A stretch of DNA of 64,000 bases, taken from contig OZ024745.1 of assembly GCA_964016885.1 (NCBI GenBank), forward strand, positions 14,756,001 through 14,820,000, read 5' to 3'. A program made the position numbers and the translations under genes. The stretch comes from Eledone cirrhosa (Eukaryota). Of the stretch, positions 4,973-63,410 are shown in pieces (position 1 is the stretch's first letter; every line of letters begins with the position of its first letter). The notes under the pieces are model-generated. The model made no database searches. It saw only the letters and a list, made by a program, of their open reading frames with translations, and was not told the origin of the DNA.

Positions 4973-5050
4973 TTCTCTGTATATATATATATATATATCT
5001 TTCTCTCTCTGTATTACATATATGTATATATTTATATATATATATATATA

Positions 5051-5737
5051 AATAATGGAATAGAAAGGGCTAAAGCAATAGGCATTGATGAATTACGGAA
5101 ACAGAAACAAATTCAAGGTACGTCCAATATTCTATCATATATCTCAACACACAACCCAAGAAATGCGGAAGCTTACAACACTATTCACAATAACATCCCA
5201 CTACTAAAACAAAACCCAAGAATGAAAAAAGCCCTTGAAACACACAAAATAATCAAAAGCAAAAGACAACCAAAATCACTGAAAACATTACTCACCAATG
5301 CCAAATTACCTACCACAAACCCACAACCAAGTATCAAAAAATGTGGTCGCTCTAATTGTGGAACCTGCACTCACCTCATTGAAGGCAACACGTATACATT
5401 TAAATCAGGACAAAATTTTACTGTAAAAAATCACTTCACTTGCTCATCAAAAAATCTAATTTATGCCATTAAATGTAAAGGATGCAATGAAGATTATATA
5501 GGACAAACTAAACTCACACTCAGAAACAGAATGACAGTTCATCGCCAACAATTACGAGATCCAACCACGAGACAGATACCACTAAGTGCACATCTAGAGA
5601 TTTGCGCAAGTAATAAGACACCCAAATTCCAAGTCTTCCCATTTTACCTTTGAGCTAACAATACAACAGAACAAATGCGAATAAATAAGGAAAATATGTT
5701 TATTCAAAAATATAGACCAACATTAAATAAGGTTTAA
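5051..5737 (+). pseudogene. Penelope-like element ORF 3' remnant (RT thumb/linker, Cys pair, GIY-YIG endonuclease)
   Basis: THNP..RQPKSLKTLLT..CGRSNCGTC..FTCSSKNLIYAIKCKGCNEDYIGQT..LRNRMTVH. Premature TGA at 5651-5653; the frame continues RINKENMFIQKYRPTLNKV to TAA at 5735-5737. 5'-truncated at (TA)n. Confidence 0.93.
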
Positions 5738-6031
5738 TATACATTATGTCAACACCACAATATGACATACACACACACACAATATATATATATATATATT
5801 CTCTTCATCTTAACATGCTAACCATACTCCCACACACATAACACCCATACACACACATAACAACCCCCACACCTGCAACTCCTTCCCCATTTCTACTAAT
5901 AGAACCACTTTCCTACACACATATATATATATATATATATACACACACAAATATATATTCTCTCCATCTTAACATACTCGCACACACACAACTCCCTCCC
6001 CCATCTCTACTAATAGAATCATCTTCCAATA

Positions 6032-6088
<57 letters not shown>

Positions 6089-6780
6089 ACACACAAGCAC
6101 ACAAATAAACATACATATCTTCACTTCAATAGAAAATCTGAACTCTGACACCCCGGCGAGCTGGACATATTCACTGAACCAGAACAAATCTCCCAATCCC
6201 TTTTCTCTTGACCACTATCTCTCCATTGTCATAACATTCATTATAAAGACTACAGAATAGTTTTCCAAATAAGGGCGCAAAAATGTAATGAAAACTTGTT
6301 CACGTGACAGCCAAATTTCATTTATAACCAACCAAAAAAAAGCCTTCGTGAGCCTCCTTTTTTCAAGTAAAAAGAAATTCAAACACTCATATATGAAAAA
6401 ACAACCTGTGACAACCACCCCTCTCTTATTTGAAGAACTATTGTAACGCGAACTGGCGCGAAATTTATTATAATTATTGACAAACCAATCAAATTACTTC
6501 TCGAAAAACCTGGCATTTCGAGCCACTTTTTCCATATAAAACAAGTAACATTCAGAGACCAACCAGATGTGAGAAAAACCACAGACCCTCCATCTCAACT
6601 CACCTTTTGAAAAGCAGAAGAACTGCGAAACCGGTAAAGGAACCAAATAAATATATATATTTAAAAAAAAAATAAGACTCCAGTTGCATTTTCGATTTCA
6701 TCTCTTTTTCTTTATACTTTCACTCGTGTAGGACACCTCGGTTATTTTTTATTTTGTAAAAAAAACCTCACTTTCTAATA
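5738..6780 (+). mobile_element. 3' UTR / pseudo-LTR of the Penelope-like element
   Basis: Follows the ORF, has an internal ~150-bp duplication with CA/TA repeats, and ends in (TA)n. Parts of 6140-6780 recur at 48703-49332 (minus) and 42733-42930 (plus, partial). Confidence 0.8.
6603..6640 (+). ncRNA. Type I hammerhead ribozyme, U3-A8 core variant
   Basis: CCTT TTGAAAA GCAG aagaa CTGC GAAAC CG GTA AAGG: 4-bp stem I, 4-bp stem II, palindromic minimal stem III (ACCGGT). Confidence 0.75.
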
Positions 6781-7734
6781 TATATATTATATATATATTT
6801 GAATAATGATTTTATATTAGAAGAATTTATTTAATTTAAAAAATATTTATAAATTTTAAATTGACGCTTGGTAGATTTGAATTATATAGAATGATTCTAA
6901 GATATTATAGGCACGTTTATTTCTCGAGCGCCATTCACACTATCACTTTTTCTCTGTTGTACAACAATATGCTTTTAGATGTGTGGTAGAATAGAAAATG
7001 TTCTTCTTCAAATTGTGGAATATTATGTCAATACATACAACAATTATTTGTTGCTTCAATTATTTTGCATAACTCTTCGTATCAAGTATATACGTGTAGA
7101 AATGAAATACCTTAGTGTACATGTATGCATGCGTTTGCGTGTATATGTGCGCGTTCGTGTTAACGTGTACACGTTTCTTCGTGTGAGCGTATACACGCAT
7201 TAATCATAAGATATGTGGGACAGAGGGAAAAATAATTTGGAATTGGTTTGGTGAGAATGTAATACGATATGCGGAACATAAATTATTCATGTCTGTCACT
7301 AAATATTCAGAAACACATTAACAGTACTACGAATGGTATTTGGAAAAAATTAAATAATTTATCGATCATGGTTATTCTAGTTGTACCTCAGCCCTCAACT
7401 CAACGGCAATAAATTGCAATAAACAACAAAAGATATATAGATCACTTTCCATCAGCATTTTCAACACATCATATTGCCATTTCTCTCTGCATATTCAATT
7501 GCTAATACAATATCTCAGACGCATCTAGTTCTCTGTGTAATGCGCAACCCCACCAGGCTATTATTTCTGTCTTGGCACCAGGAATATGTCGTTCTACTTC
7601 AACCCCTCCACAATAAATTGATCGCTACTCACTCTTCCTTAGAATAGTATCAACACTTTCCTCTCTAGTCATCATATTCTTGCAGATTTTCAATTTACAG
7701 ATACCTGGTGATGTCCAAAGAAAGCATTAAACAA

Positions 7735-30973: not shown

Positions 30974-32522
30974 GAACCGGGACAAGTCGATCAGTCTGCA
31001 ACTCGGCACGTGGAGGGGCAGATCGATGCCCTCCGATGGCGTCGTCGGGCGCTGGACGGAGGGCCCGGTGAAGTTGCTCGGGGTCTGGTTCGGACCAGAC
31101 CTCCAGGTGGAGAAGAACTGGGGTGAGGTGACGAACAGGGTGTTTGCACTGACCCAGAAGTGGGCCGAGTGCAAACTGTCCCTGAAAGGTCGGGCGGAGG
31201 TGGCGAACACTTATATAGCGTCCGTCATCTACTACCGCCTGACCGTTGTGCCTTGCCCAAGGGAAACGCTCGCCAAAATGGAGCGCGCACTCTTCCAATT
31301 CCTTTGGAAGAAGCGGGCTCCTATGGTGAGGAGATCCATCTGCTGTCAACACCCTTCGAAAGGAGGGCTGGGATGCCGTGGCTAATGATACGTAAACACG
31401 CATTAAGGCTACGGCACCTTCAGGTATTCCTCTCTGGTCAACCGGTGTGGGCTCCGTTTGTGAGGCGAGCCTTTCCCAGACTCGTCTCACTCACCGAGCT
31501 GCAATCCTGGGTCAAACAAAGACCGAGAAAACTGGGCGCCTGGCACACCGAGTGTGCCCAGGCGCTCACGGCTCTCTGGCAGGCGGACCCGGCTGTCAGT
31601 GGAGAATCCACCTCGTCATTCTATAGAGGGCTGGTGGTTAGCAGGTGCGACGACGCCCTCGGAGAAGCCCTAGGCATGGAGGAAGACGAACTGGCCAACC
31701 TGTTCGGTAGGACATTCAGCCCGGGACCCATGGATAACTTCCAGAGGTCCCTGGCCTGGCAATGCTACAGAAGGGCTCTGCCCGTTCGAGAAACGCTCTA
31801 CAGACACGGGCGCCCGGGTAGGGACCCATCGAAAAAGATCTGTCCGAGATGCGTGTGCGACGAGGAAGCCGTTGCACACGCATTGGTACACTGCTCGGCC
31901 ATTGCCGATCTGTGGGGCTATGTCGAACAACTGCTGTCAAGGGTGGGACCGATCCAGTTGACCACCGAGTCTATTGTAACGATCAAGCCGCCTCCCCTCT
32001 TCAAAAATGAAGGAGAGGCGGTGTTTCTGTGCGTAATAGCCATAGCGAAAGAGGTTGTATGGTGGACGCGTCTGAAAGGACTGAGGTCAGACACCTTTCT
32101 CTCTGGCCAACAACTGGTCCGTTTCTTCCGATATCATTTCGGAAGAAGGATCAAGATGGAGAGAGAGGTGCTGCACCCCAGCCGTTTCTATGAAAGATGG
32201 GTGAAAGTGGCGAGAATGGCCCGTGTGAATGGGCCTTCACTCTACATCAGACTATAGGTGAGGAAGATGAAAGACCAAGGGAGCACTCCTTCTCTGTGCT
32301 CCTGAGGAGAAGGGTTGCACACTTTTTTCGGGTGTGTGTGTGCGACCCCCCAAGGCGCCTCCTCTCTATTGAGGACTTTGTTATAAATTTTATTTTTTGT
32401 TATATTTTATTTTATTTTTATATATTGTTATTGCCTCCTCCTTATTGAGGACGCCTTGTTTTGTAAACTCCCCCCATTGTACTTGTCCCACTTTTGATGC
32501 CCTGGTGGCAAATAAAAGAAAC
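30973..32522 (+). mobile_element. 5'-truncated Tx1/L1-group LINE (RT C-terminus, C-terminal Zn knuckle, 3' UTR)
   Basis: NRDKS..VKLLGVWFG..LSLKGRAEVANTYIAS..ALFQFLW..KGGLG, one frameshift near 31370, then CPRCVCDEEAVAHALVHC and stop at 32257. AATAAA near 32511. GC-rich; (ATCT)n on both flanks. Confidence 0.92.
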
Positions 32523-33983: not shown

Positions 33984-34034
<51 letters not shown>

Positions 34035-34156
34035 AATATAGACATAGAATATTCGAAAATATTCTGTATGTTTATAATAAACATTTTGAAGACCTAATCG
34101 CTATAGAATAGAATACGTCACGTATTACAATTAGATTCTCGATAAAAGCAAGGGAA

Positions 34157-34199
34157 GTAATCTACGCGTTTCATTCTTGTTAGAATTCATCAGGACTAC
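34157..34199 (-). ncRNA. Type I hammerhead, minus-strand copies (also 34467-34509, 34777-34819, 35087-35129)
   Basis: Reverse complement of the 35464-35506 motif. Confidence 0.9.
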
Positions 34200-35463
34200 A
34201 TATCCAGTGCTTTTATCGAGAATGACACAGCTAGAGACTTATAGAATACTTAGCTGTGTACAGGAACTGGTTTGAAAGAGCGGTTGCCGGTCCGGCAGAA
34301 ATTAGAAATTGGAATAAATGCTCTGAAATAGCGATATATATGTGAATATAGACATAGAATATTCGAAAATATTCTGTATGTTTATAATAAACATTTTGAA
34401 GACCTAATCGCTATAGAATAGAATACGTCACGTATTACAATTAGATTCTCGATAAAAGCAAGGGAAGTAATCTACGCGTTTCATTCTTGTTAGAATTCAT
34501 CAGGACTACATATCCAGTGCTTTTATCGAGAATGACACAGCTAGAGACTTATAGAATACTTAGCTGTGTACAGGAACTGGTTTGAAAGAGCGGTTGCCGG
34601 TCCGGCAGAAATTAGAAATTGGAATAAATGCTCTGAAATAGCGATATATATGTGAATATAGACATAGAATATTCGAAAATATTCTGTATGTTTATAATAA
34701 ACATTTTGAAGACCTAATCGCTATAGAATAGAATACGTCACGTATTACAATTAGATTCTCGATAAAAGCAAGGGAAGTAATCTACGCGTTTCATTCTTGT
34801 TAGAATTCATCAGGACTACATATCCAGTGCTTTTATCGAGAATGACACAGCTAGAGACTTATAGAATACTTAGCTGTGTACAGGAACTGGTTTGAAAGAG
34901 CGGTTGCCGGTCCGGCAGAAATTAGAAATTGGAATAAATGCTCTGAAATAGCGATATATATGTGAATATAGACATAGAATATTCGAAAATATTCTGTATG
35001 TTTATAATAAACATTTTGAAGACCTAATCGCTATAGAATAGAATACGTCACGTATTACAATTAGATTCTCGATAAAAGCAAGGGAAGTAATCTACGCGTT
35101 TCATTCTTGTTAGAATTCATCAGGACTACATATCCAGTGCTTTTATCGAGAATGACACAGCTAGAGACTTATAGAATACTTAGCTGTGTACAGGAACTGG
35201 TTTGAAAGAGCGGTTGCCGGTCCGGCAGAAATTAGAAATTGGAATAAATGCTCTGAAATAGCGATATATATGTGAATATAGACATAGAATATTCGAAAAT
35301 ATTCTGTATGTTTATATTCACATATATATCGCTATTTCAGAGCATTTATTCCAATTTCTAATTTCTGCCGGACCGGCAACCGCTCTTTCAAACCAGTTCC
35401 TGTACACAGCTAAGTATTCTATAAGTCTCTAGCTGTGTCATTCTCGATAAAAGCACTGGATAT

Positions 35464-35506
35464 GTAGTCCTGATGAATTCTAACAAGAATGAAACGCGTA
35501 GATTAC
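35464..35506 (+). ncRNA. Type I hammerhead, plus-strand copies (also starting at 35774, 36084, 36394, 36704, 37014)
   Basis: GTAGTC CTGATGA ATTCT aaca AGAAT GAAAC GC GTA GATTAC. Canonical core, palindromic stem III ACGCGT. Stem I is extended by attctcgataaaagca/tgcttttatcgagaat. Confidence 0.9.
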
Positions 35507-37209
35507 TTCCCTTGCTTTTATCGAGAATCTAATTGTAATACGTGACGTATTCTATTCTATAGCGATTAGGTCTTCAAAATGTTTATTATAAACATACAGA
35601 ATATTTTCGAATATTCTATGTCTATATTCACATATATATCGCTATTTCAGAGCATTTATTCCAATTTCTAATTTCTGCCGGACCGGCAACCGCTCTTTCA
35701 AACCAGTTCCTGTACACAGCTAAGTATTCTATAAGTCTCTAGCTGTGTCATTCTCGATAAAAGCACTGGATATGTAGTCCTGATGAATTCTAACAAGAAT
35801 GAAACGCGTAGATTACTTCCCTTGCTTTTATCGAGAATCTAATTGTAATACGTGACGTATTCTATTCTATAGCGATTAGGTCTTCAAAATGTTTATTATA
35901 AACATACAGAATATTTTCGAATATTCTATGTCTATATTCACATATATATCGCTATTTCAGAGCATTTATTCCAATTTCTAATTTCTGCCGGACCGGCAAC
36001 CGCTCTTTCAAACCAGTTCCTGTACACAGCTAAGTATTCTATAAGTCTCTAGCTGTGTCATTCTCGATAAAAGCACTGGATATGTAGTCCTGATGAATTC
36101 TAACAAGAATGAAACGCGTAGATTACTTCCCTTGCTTTTATCGAGAATCTAATTGTAATACGTGACGTATTCTATTCTATAGCGATTAGGTCTTCAAAAT
36201 GTTTATTATAAACATACAGAATATTTTCGAATATTCTATGTCTATATTCACATATATATCGCTATTTCAGAGCATTTATTCCAATTTCTAATTTCTGCCG
36301 GACCGGCAACCGCTCTTTCAAACCAGTTCCTGTACACAGCTAAGTATTCTATAAGTCTCTAGCTGTGTCATTCTCGATAAAAGCACTGGATATGTAGTCC
36401 TGATGAATTCTAACAAGAATGAAACGCGTAGATTACTTCCCTTGCTTTTATCGAGAATCTAATTGTAATACGTGACGTATTCTATTCTATAGCGATTAGG
36501 TCTTCAAAATGTTTATTATAAACATACAGAATATTTTCGAATATTCTATGTCTATATTCACATATATATCGCTATTTCAGAGCATTTATTCCAATTTCTA
36601 ATTTCTGCCGGACCGGCAACCGCTCTTTCAAACCAGTTCCTGTACACAGCTAAGTATTCTATAAGTCTCTAGCTGTGTCATTCTCGATAAAAGCACTGGA
36701 TATGTAGTCCTGATGAATTCTAACAAGAATGAAACGCGTAGATTACTTCCCTTGCTTTTATCGAGAATCTAATTGTAATACGTGACGTATTCTATTCTAT
36801 AGCGATTAGGTCTTCAAAATGTTTATTATAAACATACAGAATATTTTCGAATATTCTATGTCTATATTCACATATATATCGCTATTTCAGAGCATTTATT
36901 CCAATTTCTAATTTCTGCCGGACCGGCAACCGCTCTTTCAAACCAGTTCCTGTACACAGCTAAGTATTCTATAAGTCTCTAGCTGTGTCATTCTCGATAA
37001 AAGCACTGGATATGTAGTCCTGATGAATTCTAACAAGAATGAAACGCGTAGATTACTTCCCTTGCTTTTATCGAGAATCTAATTGTAATACGTGACGTAT
37101 TCTATTCTATAGCGATTAGGTCTTCAAAATGTTTATTATAAACATACAGAATATTTTCGAATATTCTATGTCTATATTCACATATATATCGCTATTTCAG
37201 AGCATTTAT

Positions 37210-37255
<46 letters not shown>

Positions 37256-40945: not shown

Positions 40946-42732
40946 TAATATTTACAACTACGCTATATTATCTCGATCAGTTTGTACGAGTTCAAAGATC
41001 ACTTATCACGAGTTCTCTTCTTCGATGTGTGAATTGAACCACATTGAATTCAACCCCGGAACGTTTGCTCCTTAACGAAAAGCAGTATCTACCCAAGCTA
41101 CTCATGGTATTTGAAATCTAATACCATGCATCTAATACCTAAAAGCATATCCATTTGATTAATTAAATCCTTAATCACGATGGGAAATGACTTGAATTCC
41201 TATATAGAAATATCTGCATTGCTTTATCCATGGATAGTTCGAATTCACACTATAATTCCTAAATGAAATATGAATATTTTATTTCACCTTCAACAGAACT
41301 TTGTTGCTGGAGTGTGCGTGCGTGCGTGCGTGCGTGCGTGCGTCTCTGTGTGTCTGTGTTTAATAAAACGAAATATATCATAAATATTGAAAATGTTGCA
41401 GCTAATCACATTTCTATATCATTCCCCTTGCAACGAGTGAAAGGCTTACCATATCACATTCAATATAAATATTTCTACTTCTATATCGTGTTGGATATAG
41501 ATATAGAAATTTATTTATTCGTGGTGATAAACAGATATTCATAAATTTAACATTATCTTTCTGTTTCTGTTTTGAGTTCCATTTACCCATACATACTTCT
41601 TCCCTGTGACACCGTTTTATGATAAAATCATTTTATATATTTAACATAACTCATAATAGCTTCATCCGGAAACACGTAGCAATTCATTATGTATCTCGTG
41701 AGAATTGCTAGGTAAAACTATACTTAACAATAGTCATTATATTCAGTTCTATCTGTCACATAGCAATCGATCTGTTGATGTTCGTTTCATATCTTTACTT
41801 CTATTGTCAATTCTTTGTGTGTTTTTAATTAAAATTTCATCTATAAAAAAAAAATAGACACCAGAAACACTTCTTAAGAATTCAATAGATTTTATTAAGA
41901 TATTTTAAGCCCTTTTTGAGCCAATAGATTTCGTTAATAGATGTTATTAATATTATCTGATGGAATAGTTCCGCTAGAATCGAAAGTTATATATGAACGC
42001 AGCTTGATTTCATTTTCCGCTTTCGTGTTTACTTAATTGAAAAATCTCAATTGCTTACCTTCCCTTTGTATTCAATAAATGTTTAATGCTGAATACAGAA
42101 TATTAAATTTTAAATTACCCTCAGATAATATGAAGTATGTGATGTTTACGTTGTCTTCTTAATCCGAATATGAAAATATAAAGCTCTACTTTATATTAAA
42201 ATATAAAGCTTGTTAAACAAATATGTTGTCAGTATTTCCGTTAAATGACATCAAATATGATTATAGCTTGAAAGTTGGTTCGACATGCAGGCGAGAAAAT
42301 AGCGCATACTTACCAACACAGATTTCAACACATAAGATTCATTTATATTTGGATCTACTGAATCTATAATAGAAGAATATCAGAACGTTTAGCGTTTCAT
42401 ATTACACAGTTAACAAGTAACAAAAGGAAAACGATGAGATATTAGATTTCAAAAGTGACAAACTAGACATTGAGAAACGGTTATAACTGATGTTCATATG
42501 TAAGAGAAATGAACATTATGTTGCAGTTATCAGAAGATCTCAAATCCCTTCTGATACTTTTTATCCAATATGTAAAAAAAAATCACATATCACATTTCTC
42601 ACAAGCATCTTTCCTATTACCCCCCCCCCCCCCCAACCAGTAAATATAGGCAAAGTGCATTCAATATTAGTGGTAAAGCAAAGTAGATGAAAGAAAATAT
42701 AAAACCATTTACGATATGAATTATACATATGC

Positions 42733-42920
42733 ATAGACCCTCCATCTCAACTCTACTTTTGAAAGCTGAAGAACTGCGAAACCGCTAAAGAGACCAAATA
42801 AATATATATATATTTTTTTAAATAAAACTCCAGTTGCATTTTCAATTTCATCTTTTTTTCTTTATACTTTCACTCGTGTAGGACACCTAGGTTATTTTTC
42901 ATTTTGTAAAAAAATCTCAC

Positions 42921-42930
<10 letters not shown>
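42733..42930 (+). mobile_element. Solo fragment of the PLE pseudo-LTR with decayed hammerhead
   Basis: Matches 6583-6780 and ends in (TA)n. Confidence 0.85.
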
Positions 42931-42978
<48 letters not shown>

Positions 42979-47646: not shown

Positions 47647-48702
47647 ATAATCTATAATTAATAATGTATAATTAATAATGTATAATTAATAATGTATAAT
47701 TAATAATGTATAATAAGGCATGGGGAAGATTACACTATAATAAGGTATAAAAGTAAGGATAAGGTAAAATATAAAGGAGGATAAAAGGGAAAATAAGAAT
47801 AAAGATAAAAAAATATATATATAAAAAAAAGTATATAGAGAATATATAAAGAAGTATTTGAAGGGGAAAACCCAATGTAAAAAAACCGATTTTTTCAAAT
47901 AAAAATATAATTATGGGGGGAGAAAACGATACAATATACATGTATACAATGCACGCATATATACATGCATGCATGCACACACGTACGCACACACACATAC
48001 ATATGTCTGTGTGTGTGTGTGTGAGAGAGAAAAGGAGAATACACACACACACATATACACACACATACACACACACACAAAAACACCAACCTTGTAGAGG
48101 ACTGTTCCACCCTTAGGCTACCTATCTATCTGGGTTACGGGTTGGAGGGGAGGGGGGGAGCTGTAGTCAAGCATGTCTAGGTGGGGGTTGCGTAATATAT
48201 GTTACGTCTATGTGCTAGGTTTAAAATAGAAGAAGGAACTCAGGATTTTGTGTTGGCAAGAGGAGAAAATTTCCGATTTCCTGTTAAGCAGGTTCAGTTT
48301 AGAGTGTATTATGGCATGGCATTCCAGTAAACACAGGTCACAACTCCCGCTCTATATATATGCACATCTATACTCTCACGGCTGCCAGCTCGATTGCGGT
48401 GCAACGTCCATCGTTCATATCTTTTCACAAACAAACGAACAACCCAGCACGTACTCACTCGCACTCACACGCACGCACGCACTCACACACACGCACTCAC
48501 ACGCACGCATTCACATGCACGCATTTCATCCTTTATTTATCATTCTATCTCTTGATGAAGGACTAGTGTGAGAAATGTAAAGATGCTTTTCCTACTATAT
48601 GAAGTGTTAAACTAATATATTCCTTTATTATACTGTGATGTTTGCATTATTCTTTCCCTTTACTTTTCGTACACACAGGGCACACAGCTATATATATATA
48701 TA

Positions 48703-49332
48703 TTAGAAAGTGAGGTTTTTTTTACAAAATGAAAATTAACCGAGGTGTCCTACACGAGTGAAAGTATAAAGAAAAAAAGATGAAATAGAAAATGCAACTG
48801 GAGTCTTATTAAAAAAAATATATATATATTTATTTGGTTCCTTTACCGGTTTTGCAGTTCTTCTGCTTTTCTAAAGTAGAGTTGAGATGGAGGGTCTGTG
48901 GTTTTTCTCACATCTGGTTGGTCTTTGAATGTTACTTGTTTTATATGTAAAAAGTGGCTCGAAACGCCAGGTTTTTAGAGAAGTAATTTGATTGGTTGGT
49001 CAATAATTATAATAAATTTCGCACCAGTTCGCGTTACAAAGTTCTTAAAACAGGGGGCGGGGCTCAGGTTGTTTTTTTCATATATGAGTGTTTGAATTTC
49101 TTTTTACTTAAAAAAAGGGGCTCACGAAGGCTTTTTTTAAATAAACGTAATTTGATTGGTTATAAATGAAATTATGGCTGTCACGTGAACACGTTTTCAT
49201 TAAATTTCGCGCCCGTATTTGGAAATTTATTCTGTAGTCCTTTTAGAGAATTTTATGACAAGCAAAAGATAATGGTCAAGAGAAATGGGATGGGAGAATT
49301 GTTCTGGTTCAGTGAATATGGTTAGTTCGCCC
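48703..49332 (-). mobile_element. Solo copy of the PLE pseudo-LTR
   Basis: Diverged reverse complement of about 6150-6780, with a decayed HHR core. 3' end in (TA)n. Confidence 0.9.
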
Positions 49333-56573: not shown

Positions 56574-56613
<40 letters not shown>

Positions 56614-56618
<5 letters not shown>

Positions 56619-58258
56619 ATATTTAGAAACACACAGATACATGCGGACACACACATATATACATGAATGCATCCGCACCCAACTGTGAGTTAAGGGTGCC
56701 AACTTCACCGATGTTGCTCAATGAATGACTGGGACAGACCAATTCAGTTGAACTAGACTGAACCAGTATCAGAGTTAAAAATACATTATGAAGAGAGAAG
56801 AAACATTTAGATATAATTAGTAATAAAATGTATCATACCTAAACTGCTCCTAAATTCCTCGACTACGTAGTTTCGTGGCATAAACAAAAACAATATATCA
56901 TAAAGATATAGAGTCCCTGCGAGGTCTGCCGACTTATCAAGAGGATACCTCATTTTACTAGTCTCAAGAACGCGTCTACACGACGTGAGAAAGAATCCCA
57001 AAAGGCGGAGGGGGAGATAGTCACGCGATATAACGGTCGAGAAACAGAGCTAAGCCTCTTATAACCCCGAAGAAAATACCACGGAGGCGGAGGGGGTATT
57101 TATATCGAGGCCGTAGAAGAGGTGGTGAAGAAGGCGAGAAGTATGAGTAATGGAAGCTTTCCAGCTGTCCCCACACTTCAAAGATTGCTCGACCAGAGGG
57201 AGTTATTAACAATATATTTAGAAACACACAGATACATGCGGACACACACATATATACATGAATGCATCCGCACCCAACTGTGAGTTAAGGGTGCCAACTT
57301 CACCGATGTTGCTCAATGAATGACTGGGACAGACCAATTCAGTTGAACTAGACTGAACCAGTATCAGAGTTAAAAATACATTATGAAGAGAGAAGAAACA
57401 TTTAGATATAATTAGTAATAAAATGTATCATACCTAAACTGCTCCTAAATTCCTCGACTACGTAGTTTCGTGGCATAAACAAAAACAATATATCATAAAG
57501 ATATAGAGTCCCTGCGAGGTCTGCCGACTTATCAAGAGGATACCTCATTTTACTAGTCTCAAGAACGCGTCTACACGACGTGAGAAAGAATCCCAAAAGG
57601 CGGAGGGGGAGATAGTCACGCGATATAACGGTCGAGAAACAGAGCTAAGCCTCTTATAACCCCGAAGAAAATACCACGGAGGCGGAGGGGGTATTTATAT
57701 CGAGGCCGTAGAAGAGGTGGTGAAGAAGGCGAGAAGTATGAGTAATGGAAGCTTTCCAGCTGTCCCCACACTTCAAAGATTGCTCGACCAGAGGGAGTTA
57801 TTAACAATATATTTAGAAACACACAGATACATGCGGACACACACATATATACATGAATGCATCCGCACCCAACTGTGAGTTAAGGGTGCCAACCTCACCG
57901 ATGTTGCTCAATGAATGACTGGGACAGACCAATTCAGTTGAACTAGACTGAACCAGTATCAGAGTTAAAAATACATTATGAAGAGAGAAGAAACATTTAG
58001 ATATAATTAGTAATAAAATGTATCATACCTAAACTGCTCCTAAATTCCTCGACTACGTAGTTTCGTGGCATAAACAAAAACAATATATCATAAAGATATA
58101 GAGTCCCTGCGAGTTCTGCCGACTTATCAAGAGGATACCTCATTTTACTAGTCTCAAGAACGCGTCTACACGACGTGAGAAAGAATCCCAAAAGGCGGAG
58201 GGGGAGATAGTCACGCGATATAACGGTCGAGAAACAGAGCTAAGCCTCTTATAACCCC
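56614..58258 (-). repeat. 595-bp tandem array (~2.8 copies), one variant hammerhead per unit
   Basis: Unit starts at 56614, 57209 and 57804. Near-identical (two substitutions seen in copy 3). (TA)n at both ends. Confidence 0.95.
56855..56946 (-). ncRNA. Type I hammerhead, U3-A8 core with enlarged stem II (also 57450-57541, 58045-58136)
   Basis: TCCTC TTGATAA GT(c)GGCA [~46 nt] TGCCAC GAAAC TACGTA GTC GAGGA, with palindromic stem III ACTACGTAGT. Confidence 0.7.
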
Positions 58259-58369
58259 ATATATATATATATAAATATACAAACATTCATACACACACAG
58301 ACACACATACACATACACATATATATATATTATTATATATCTACAAACATACGTACATTCACACACACA

Positions 58370-63039: not shown

Positions 63040-63410
63040 TGTAAAATGTAAAAAGAAATAGCAACACAATCGGTACAGTATATGGAAAGGATATATTAGG
63101 TTAACGCTTGATATAGCAGGAAGAGGGTCTTAACGTTTCGGACGATAGTCCTTCATCAGAAGAAAGAATGAGAAATAAGATAGATTGAGGGGACGGGTGG
63201 GTTGGATTTGGAAAAAATGTTGTTAGATAAAAATAACAGGTCCATTCATGTTGACATCTCTTGAAAACTGTTGGTGCTGGCGTTTTGTGTATGATTTATT
63301 TTTAGAAAAATGGATGATAGTGCGCATCTACCTGAAATGGAAAAAAAACGTTTTGTAAAAAGAGCTATACTTGAGCACGTGCGTAAGCATGAGTGTGTGT
63401 GTATGTGTGT

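Follow-up and report, generated by a model that had tools for sequence, protein, structure and literature searches.

The question

What is the 595-bp repeat that interrupts a (TA)n tract in Eledone cirrhosa, and what put it there? The genome is 3.0 Gb in a few very large contigs and is dense in microsatellites. The repeat lies on contig OZ024745.1 in a stretch of 64,000 nucleotides, the window, and the coordinates given here count from its first letter. The initial annotation read the repeat as retrozyme-like, with an unusual hammerhead ribozyme on the minus strand.

The insertion

The 595-bp period is borne out. There are 2.76 head-to-tail units on the minus strand (595 + 595 + 455 bp), and (TA)n bounds them on both sides as had been claimed (Table 1). 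The copies differ at 2 positions only, 57299/57894 and 57519/58114. At 58114 the truncated unit has a C-to-A change, inside the 3' pseudoknot strand of its ribozyme. The insertion is truncated 5' at unit position 141 (58258), and its 3' end is the far one of two fixed sites. The unit is 42% G+C. It is also non-coding as annotated: stop-to-stop frames in the array reach 80-87 aa at most, and a frame of its own for reverse transcriptase (RT) plus GIY-YIG is absent. Simple pattern searches of the unit found neither a second ribozyme on the plus strand nor Pol III A/B boxes. The motif CCCTCCGCC occurs twice per unit, 82 nt apart (57013 and 57095 on the minus strand; also 57608, 57690 and 58203), and is kept in sister family D. 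It is GC box-like and may be a candidate internal promoter.

Other elements share the window. A 310-bp unit forms a head-to-head array (about 4.2 + 6.2 units, 34024-37215), also in (TA)n. It has a canonical CUGAUGA hammerhead core and arms that end differently, and another copy lies in locus L047. At 63125-63170, on the minus strand, a short type I hammerhead with the canonical CUGAUGA and a palindromic AACGUU belongs to a different repeat family with two related copies elsewhere. The 376-aa frame at 31127-32257 has a weak zf-RVT match and is probably a LINE fragment.

Table 1. Positions of the features in the window
Feature	Position	Strand	Remark
Tandem insertion, 2.76 head-to-tail units	56614..58258	minus	unit alignment, period 595
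Full unit, 3'-most copy, 595 bp	56614..57208	minus	
Full unit, middle copy, 595 bp	57209..57803	minus	served as query
5'-truncated unit, 455 bp	57804..58258	minus	
(TA)n target tract, left	56585..56613		
(TA)n target tract, right	58259..58274		
Predicted type I hammerhead, copy 3	56856..56952	minus	C17 at 56861
Predicted type I hammerhead, copy 2	57451..57547	minus	C17 at 57456
Predicted type I hammerhead, copy 1	58046..58142	minus	C17 at 58051
Copy 2, stem I	57540-57536 with 57455-57451	minus	
Copy 2, core U3 to A8	57535-57529	minus	GAAA at 57469
Copy 2, stem IIa	57528-57522 with 57475-57470	minus	
Stem III, 10-nt palindrome	57457..57466	minus	folding energies
Distal unbranched stem II hairpin	57480..57514	minus	G-U rich helix, TATATC/GATATA tip
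Predicted pseudoknot 5' strand UGAGGU, just 5' of stem I	57542..57547; also 56947-56952, 58137-58142	minus	
Predicted pseudoknot 3' strand ACCUCG, stem II internal loop	57515..57520; also 56920-56925	minus	
Near fixed 3' end site, 80 nt past predicted cut	56781; also 57376, 57971	minus	unused by window copy
Far fixed 3' end site, 245-247 nt past predicted cut	56614..56616	minus	used by window copy, abuts (TA)n
Candidate partner PLE copy, 5'-truncated	5048..6784	plus	outside insertion; GIY-YIG end, minimal U3-A8 hammerhead at 6607, end +147

The hammerhead core

The pieces named by the initial annotation (stem I TCCTC/GAGGA, core TTGATAA, a GAAA box and a GUC site) all occur, three times on the minus strand. 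The cut it placed at 56861/56860 is the one we predict for copy 3. The sequence fits the core YUGANRA / GAAA / UH with a paired 3-8 and G10.1-C11.1, in the U3-A8 form. The core is therefore non-canonical as claimed, but it is not new, since U3-A8 has been described before as a covariation that occurs in nature (Perreault et al. 2011, PMC3088659) and about 1,300 U3-A8 matches have been tied to Schistosoma Penelope-like elements (PLEs; Cervera and de la Pena 2014, PMC4209133). A search for CTGANGA was expected to miss the motif, and it does escape CUGANGA and Rfam searches alike. The Rfam scan gave no hammerhead match at gathering scores or at E<=10, likely because stem II is long. The A8G single change that had been put forward as a control would leave a U3-G8 wobble, and hence would not be a clean null.

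Do related copies keep this structure? Among the first 100 listed copies found with a 24-letter search pattern that covers stem I plus the core, 99 have U3-A8 and one has U3-G8. Members of the window's family (family A) were sampled by ribozyme patterns, which makes conservation within the family weak evidence. Eleven representatives of families A, D, E, F and G pair in 131 of 132 cells of the hammerhead helices, three of which surround the core, with stem I as the open one. Changes on both sides are seen at 9 of the 12 pairs, including the stem III palindrome and the 3-8 pair, which is C-G in 8 representatives and U-A in 3. Controls with a slid register pair in only 30-44% of cells. The initial annotation would have given up its reading if other copies failed to conserve the core and pairings. 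They conserve the core and the hammerhead helices.

Stem III is a 10-nt palindrome that is worth +0.8 kcal/mol as a hairpin and -14.3 as an intermolecular duplex. Because it is a palindrome, it suggests that cleavage would be dimeric. Weak palindromic stems III have been tied to dimeric cleavage before (PMC4209133, PMC7229834).

One can imagine that the motif is an inactive look-alike, or that it is active without any pseudoknot and the complementarity described below is incidental. The missing Rfam match would fit this, and so would the fold of the 100-nt ribozyme region alone, which is no more stable than its shuffles (z -1.3). The whole monomer is unusually stable (z -7.0), and its predicted fold leaves the ribozyme without its active shape. 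It must also be noted that 1 of 9 predicted Xenopus retrozymes cleaved in vitro and the other eight failed (bioRxiv 10.64898/2026.07.22.740005). However, every helix and the 3-8 pair have changed on both sides, and there are four pseudoknot sequences that each match their own partner alone in most cross-tests. We consider this alternative, in either form, quite improbable. The family of ribozyme-bearing retroelements is real and probably functional.

Stem II and a probable pseudoknot

Stem II was originally drawn as a branched arm that encloses two small hairpins. One of the two stands. TATATC/GATATA pairs as the tip of a long helix, while the CCT/AGG hairpin finds no support in folding energies or in RNAalifold. 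When stems I, IIa and III are constrained, the folding energy is -13.9 kcal/mol for the branched form vs -22.9 for the unbranched form, and the CCT/AGG pairs have a probability of 0.0. That hairpin can form in just 36 of the 75 distinct family A and D ribozyme sequences, and 72 of them adopt the unbranched fold. The RNAalifold structure of 8 variants has no branch either: stem IIa leads to an unpaired ACCUC loop, and a long hairpin lies distal to it. Stem II is thus predicted to be a 6-bp helix, then an internal loop, then the distal hairpin, about 60 nt in total.

The unusual feature of this ribozyme is a predicted pseudoknot, which the first reading missed, rather than branching. The 5' strand of the stem II internal loop is complementary to the bases directly upstream of stem I, and the sequence that does this differs by family. 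The strands are UGAGGU/ACCUCG in family A, UGAAAAGA/UCUUUUCA in E, GGAAAAU/AUUUUCC in F and CGAGUUU/AAACUCG in G. Families A, D and E share a register, in which 5 of 6 pairs have changed on both sides and 88.9% of cells pair. Within A and D the pseudoknot is conserved and shows no covariation. Cognate duplexes average -6.6 kcal/mol vs -2.7 for duplexes between families, of which the strongest is worth -9.1. The cognate pairing ranks first of the 24 permutations of four family groups. In 9 of 11 representatives the pseudoknot beats at least 98% of local 9-mers; two E-type sequences fail. A model built without the pseudoknot pairs has 23 matches in 19 sources. Of these, 15 are not A, D or window copies, and 10 of the 15 beat at least 95% of local 9-mers. 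The five misses are three E-type sequences with one mismatch, one weak and one unpaired. The windows for this test were set after the data had been inspected and 5 of the 15 were already known, so it counts as support and not as a blind test. The sister families may also share ancestry, which means that the pseudoknot and covariation counts are not independent. Even so, the models point to a long stem II arm that likely folds back as a pseudoknot common to several sister families.

Family size and sister families

Family A has at least 5,932 copies: this is the number of matches to the 24-letter pattern, and since the reversed control has 0 they do not arise by chance. A search with the unit gave 1,422 candidate places, of which 38 were scored; the full-length matches are 99-100% identical. 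With 3.4% divergence between loci in a sample ordered by position, these copies support the retrozyme-like family that had been proposed, and its recent activity. Sister family D has a 593-bp unit, 62% identical to family A over 328 columns. The units of E and F are 483 and 485 bp, and G is a further sister. A looser U3-A8 pattern with a long stem II has 8,425 matches vs 132 in the control, and its C3-G8 version has 2,355 vs 21.

Some matches have other explanations. Eight of the first 100 listed U3-A8-like matches lie in a LINE frame (L087-L089), an ORF region with no palindrome. The single match that looked like a C3-G8 member of family A is a junction with another element's ribozyme. The U3-A8 pattern with another first palindrome base has 49 matches vs 44 in the control and these are mostly chance; a few of them resemble one more family. 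Degenerate copies of a further U3-A8, long-stem-II, hammerhead-like family are seen at six loci (L104, L114, L149, L151, L189, L190).

The unit also turns up in sequencing runs under 17 organism labels from 16 studies, with no RNA run among those listed. In four of these runs the unit pieces are 90-99+% identical and of low depth, with no covariation and few letters that differ. Closely related species may account for this, and so may diet or contamination, or spread by horizontal transfer.

Two fixed 3' ends

How the copies end is a separate line of reasoning. In unit numbering there are two fixed 3' ends, near (428) and far (593-595), and both lie at short AT-rich motifs that resemble the target. 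Among 57 loci sampled in the order of the contigs, 25 show a head-to-head inversion in which one arm has the near end and the other arm the far end (two of them, L078 and L080, are seemingly one duplicated insertion). Simple copies have the far end in 14 cases and the near end in 12, and 6 are other. One site per arm holds for 25 of 28 inverted copies, and the remaining three are cut by a locus edge or mis-split. The best-match set, judged by eye, follows the same rule in 13 of 14 inverted insertions. Genome-wide, the near end joins (TA)n 1,946 times and the far end about 1,000 times (525 forward; reverse rows are double-counted). Sister families have end pairs of their own past the predicted cut: +60/+215-219 in D, +81/+189 in E and +92/+194 in F. 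Arrays of nine pieces occur (L093). This is the insertion pattern of PLEs, with 5' truncation, partial tandems, head-to-head inversion and two fixed 3' ends.

A candidate partner

A GIY-YIG fragment in the window leads to the dominant PLE of this genome, which has a 775-aa RT plus GIY-YIG frame elsewhere. There are 23,363 candidates for it; the best 150 are 98-100% identical and many have the full frame. Its CX4CxxC linker fits the Neptune/Nematis motif given in PMC8557442, and its type is assigned by this motif rather than by a tree. Its copies lie in (TA)n, its hammerhead is a minimal one with U3-A8, and it ends at +79 in 16 and at +147 in 41 of 61 cases. Three 5'-truncated copies lie in the window itself (5048-6784, 42732-42933 and 48697-49321), each ending at +147. 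At L090:2232-3461 (also in L091) a 409-aa frame without a Pfam match overlaps the start of the RT frame, perhaps by a frameshift or an intron.

Unit A and this PLE have no sequence in common beyond microsatellite, and other PLE families are co-resident at about 40-60% identity. For these two reasons the dominant PLE is the leading candidate for a partner and is not proven. G-family copies next to PLEs might look like a sign of a parent element, but the common (TA)n target explains them.

Could the unit instead be the detached pseudo-LTR of an autonomous PLE family, so that its copies are 5'-truncated pieces of that family and not an independent non-autonomous one? Homology to known elements, mostly PLE ends, was found for 24 of 57 Xenopus retrozyme families (bioRxiv 10.64898/2026.07.22.740005). 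No PLE with the unit as its pLTR is seen among 50 GIY-YIG loci, a survey that covers 50 of 10,595 candidates and so leaves such a parent some room. The bare 595-bp unit is commonly found in head-to-tail arrays, though, and RT or endonuclease matches adjoin A or D units at only two of the examined loci, L051 and L260. We think the pseudo-LTR reading is unlikely. At L260 the insertion of A lies downstream of a PLE frame, at a distance of about 500 bp. At L051:1256-1900 a family A piece is fused directly to another PLE (L281 type), at the 3' end where that PLE has its hammerhead, and there is a short duplication. This is either a template switch or an insertion into the PLE's TA end.

The template

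What was copied? Divergence is 0.47% within an arm, 0.48% between the arms and 3.43% between loci (55 loci). Subfamily-diagnostic cells agree within loci in 389 of 393 cases, and 4 of 80 within-locus discordant sites recur in another locus. At 34 sites a rare variant is present in every unit of its insertion, and at 16 of these it is found on both arms; the matching counts for variants not so shared are 111 and 59. The low divergence within insertions means that both arms come from one template or from near-identical ones. Since all 3' ends lie past the cut, the template must span it, and it was either a ligated circle or uncleaved RNA.

Uncleaved RNA has to be taken seriously. In this scenario the element and the PLE machinery are the same, but the template is linear multimeric RNA from long homogeneous arrays. 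There is no circle, and the hammerhead is a passenger or serves another step. It explains the 3' ends as well as a circle does, and nine-piece arrays could be its sources. PMC11167929 reports that hammerhead cleavage is not needed for insertion of the PLE studied there and that uncleaved RNA is the main template in vitro. However, the 34 variant sites common to whole insertions and the low recurrence of discordant sites point to repeated passage through a single monomer, and every family has kept an elaborate ribozyme with compensatory changes. We regard uncleaved RNA as a real possibility and the circle as somewhat the likelier template.

The route would then be as follows. The array would be transcribed on the minus strand. 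The pseudoknot would hold stems I and II parallel, replacing the usual loop-loop contact. Two ribozymes would pair by their palindromic stems III and cut the tandem RNA to 595-nt monomers, which would be ligated into circles, somewhat more likely than not the template. The PLE protein would nick (TA)n, and reverse transcription would begin at two internal sites, one per DNA strand, cross the cut site and often go round more than one unit. In vitro, one PLE does begin reverse transcription at two internal positions, which set the tail seen in the genome, and it extends both strands (Frangieh et al. 2024, PMC11167929). In sum, we hold with good confidence that this is a non-coding tandem family of several thousand copies in (TA)n, with a predicted type I hammerhead and a likely pseudoknot, and that it was likely copied by the RT plus GIY-YIG of a Neptune-type PLE.

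What this may mean

A wider claim can be put forward tentatively, and we would not lean on it yet. There may be an undescribed subclass of type I hammerheads, defined by a long stem II with its internal loop pseudoknotted to the bases 5' of stem I, by a stem III that is a 10-nt palindrome and by C3-G8 or U3-A8. At least five retrozyme families would have radiated with it in this genome, to about 10,000 copies in all. Their template would be circular RNA and their enzyme the co-resident intact Neptune-type PLE, which would prime one DNA strand about 80 nt past the cut and the other at 150-245 nt. If this subclass-plus-PLE reading is true, the genome holds a matched pair of enzyme and template for testing how animal retrozymes move. 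In the cited literature, as far as its accessible portions go, both the enzyme that moves them and the circular template are proposed and not shown. In this genome a hammerhead repeat that codes for no protein has the same two-end footprint as an intact PLE (near ends +80 and +79), and the footprint says exactly what to expect from the in vitro PLE assay that has been published. The natural pseudoknot swaps are ready-made compensatory variants. Since these ribozymes escape Rfam and CUGANGA searches, such families must be undercounted.

Comparison with known systems

The U3-A8 core, pseudoknotted hammerheads, units of this size, PLE origin and the two-start tail have each been published already. 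The combination of U3-A8, a pseudoknotted stem II, a 595-bp unit and a two-end tail was not met in our literature search. Nor did that search find a type I retrozyme hammerhead with a stem II internal-loop pseudoknot (figures or supplements could hold one), a cephalopod retrozyme study or a statement of one start site per arm. The accessible text of PMC10085705, PMC13725137 and PMC7761336 has nothing on stem II pseudoknot topology or per-arm start sites.

The closest systems, as described in the accessible parts of these papers, are the metazoan non-LTR retrozymes (Cervera and de la Pena 2020, PMC7229834; Li, Clavereau and Pollet 2026, bioRxiv 10.64898/2026.07.22.740005). These are also non-coding tandems with one type I hammerhead per unit, G+C below 50%, a weak palindromic stem III, thousands of copies and co-resident PLEs. 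Like them, this is a dispersed multi-copy family without an LTR/PBS/PPT layout, as judged from the copies and their arrangement rather than from a motif search for PBS and PPT. The unit was said to be longer than typical metazoan retrozymes. That is true against the 170-400 nt of PMC7229834, but 595 bp is within the 51-972 bp of the 2026 preprint. Homology to the pLTR of a PLE, known for part of the families in that preprint, was found neither with the dominant PLE nor in the 50 GIY-YIG loci surveyed out of 10,595 candidates. Retrozymes have a short helix and loop-loop contacts, whereas here there is a stem II of about 60 nt with an internal loop, a predicted Watson-Crick pseudoknot and U3-A8.

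EN+ PLEs of the Neptune/Nematis kind (Craig et al. 2021, PMC8557442; Arkhipova et al. 2013, PMC3846280; PMC11167929) share the 5' truncation, partial tandems, head-to-head inversion and microsatellite target, and also the optional tail on one end that marks two internal reverse transcription starts. Unlike them the unit has no ORF. Its tail has a length of 165 nt, and that of the local PLE 68 nt, vs the 30-40 bp published for EN+ PLEs, and its ends resemble the target while the start site of the anole PLE does not (PMC11167929).

Turning to the ribozyme, the U3-A8 hammerheads of PLEs and other natural sources (PMC4209133, PMC3088659) have the same covariation, a palindromic stem III region and predicted dimeric action. 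The minimal motifs have a helix II of 7-8 bp, whereas the present ribozyme measures about 100 nt and has peripheral structure. Pseudoknots occur in about 40% of hammerhead representatives, in all three types (PMC3088659), and as in those the stem I side and the stem II side are joined by Watson-Crick pairing in place of loop-loop contacts. In the crystallised pistol-like PK hammerhead (PMC11300833) the pseudoknot replaces helix II entirely, unlike here. In the HDV-like type III hammerheads of toad and termite (PMC7936874) the proximal lengths are similar (stem I 5 bp, stem II 6 bp), and there too a distal hairpin lies beyond an internal loop. The form described here differs in being type I. 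Its internal loop and its distal hairpin both belong to stem II, and the predicted partner is the sequence next to stem I on the 5' side.
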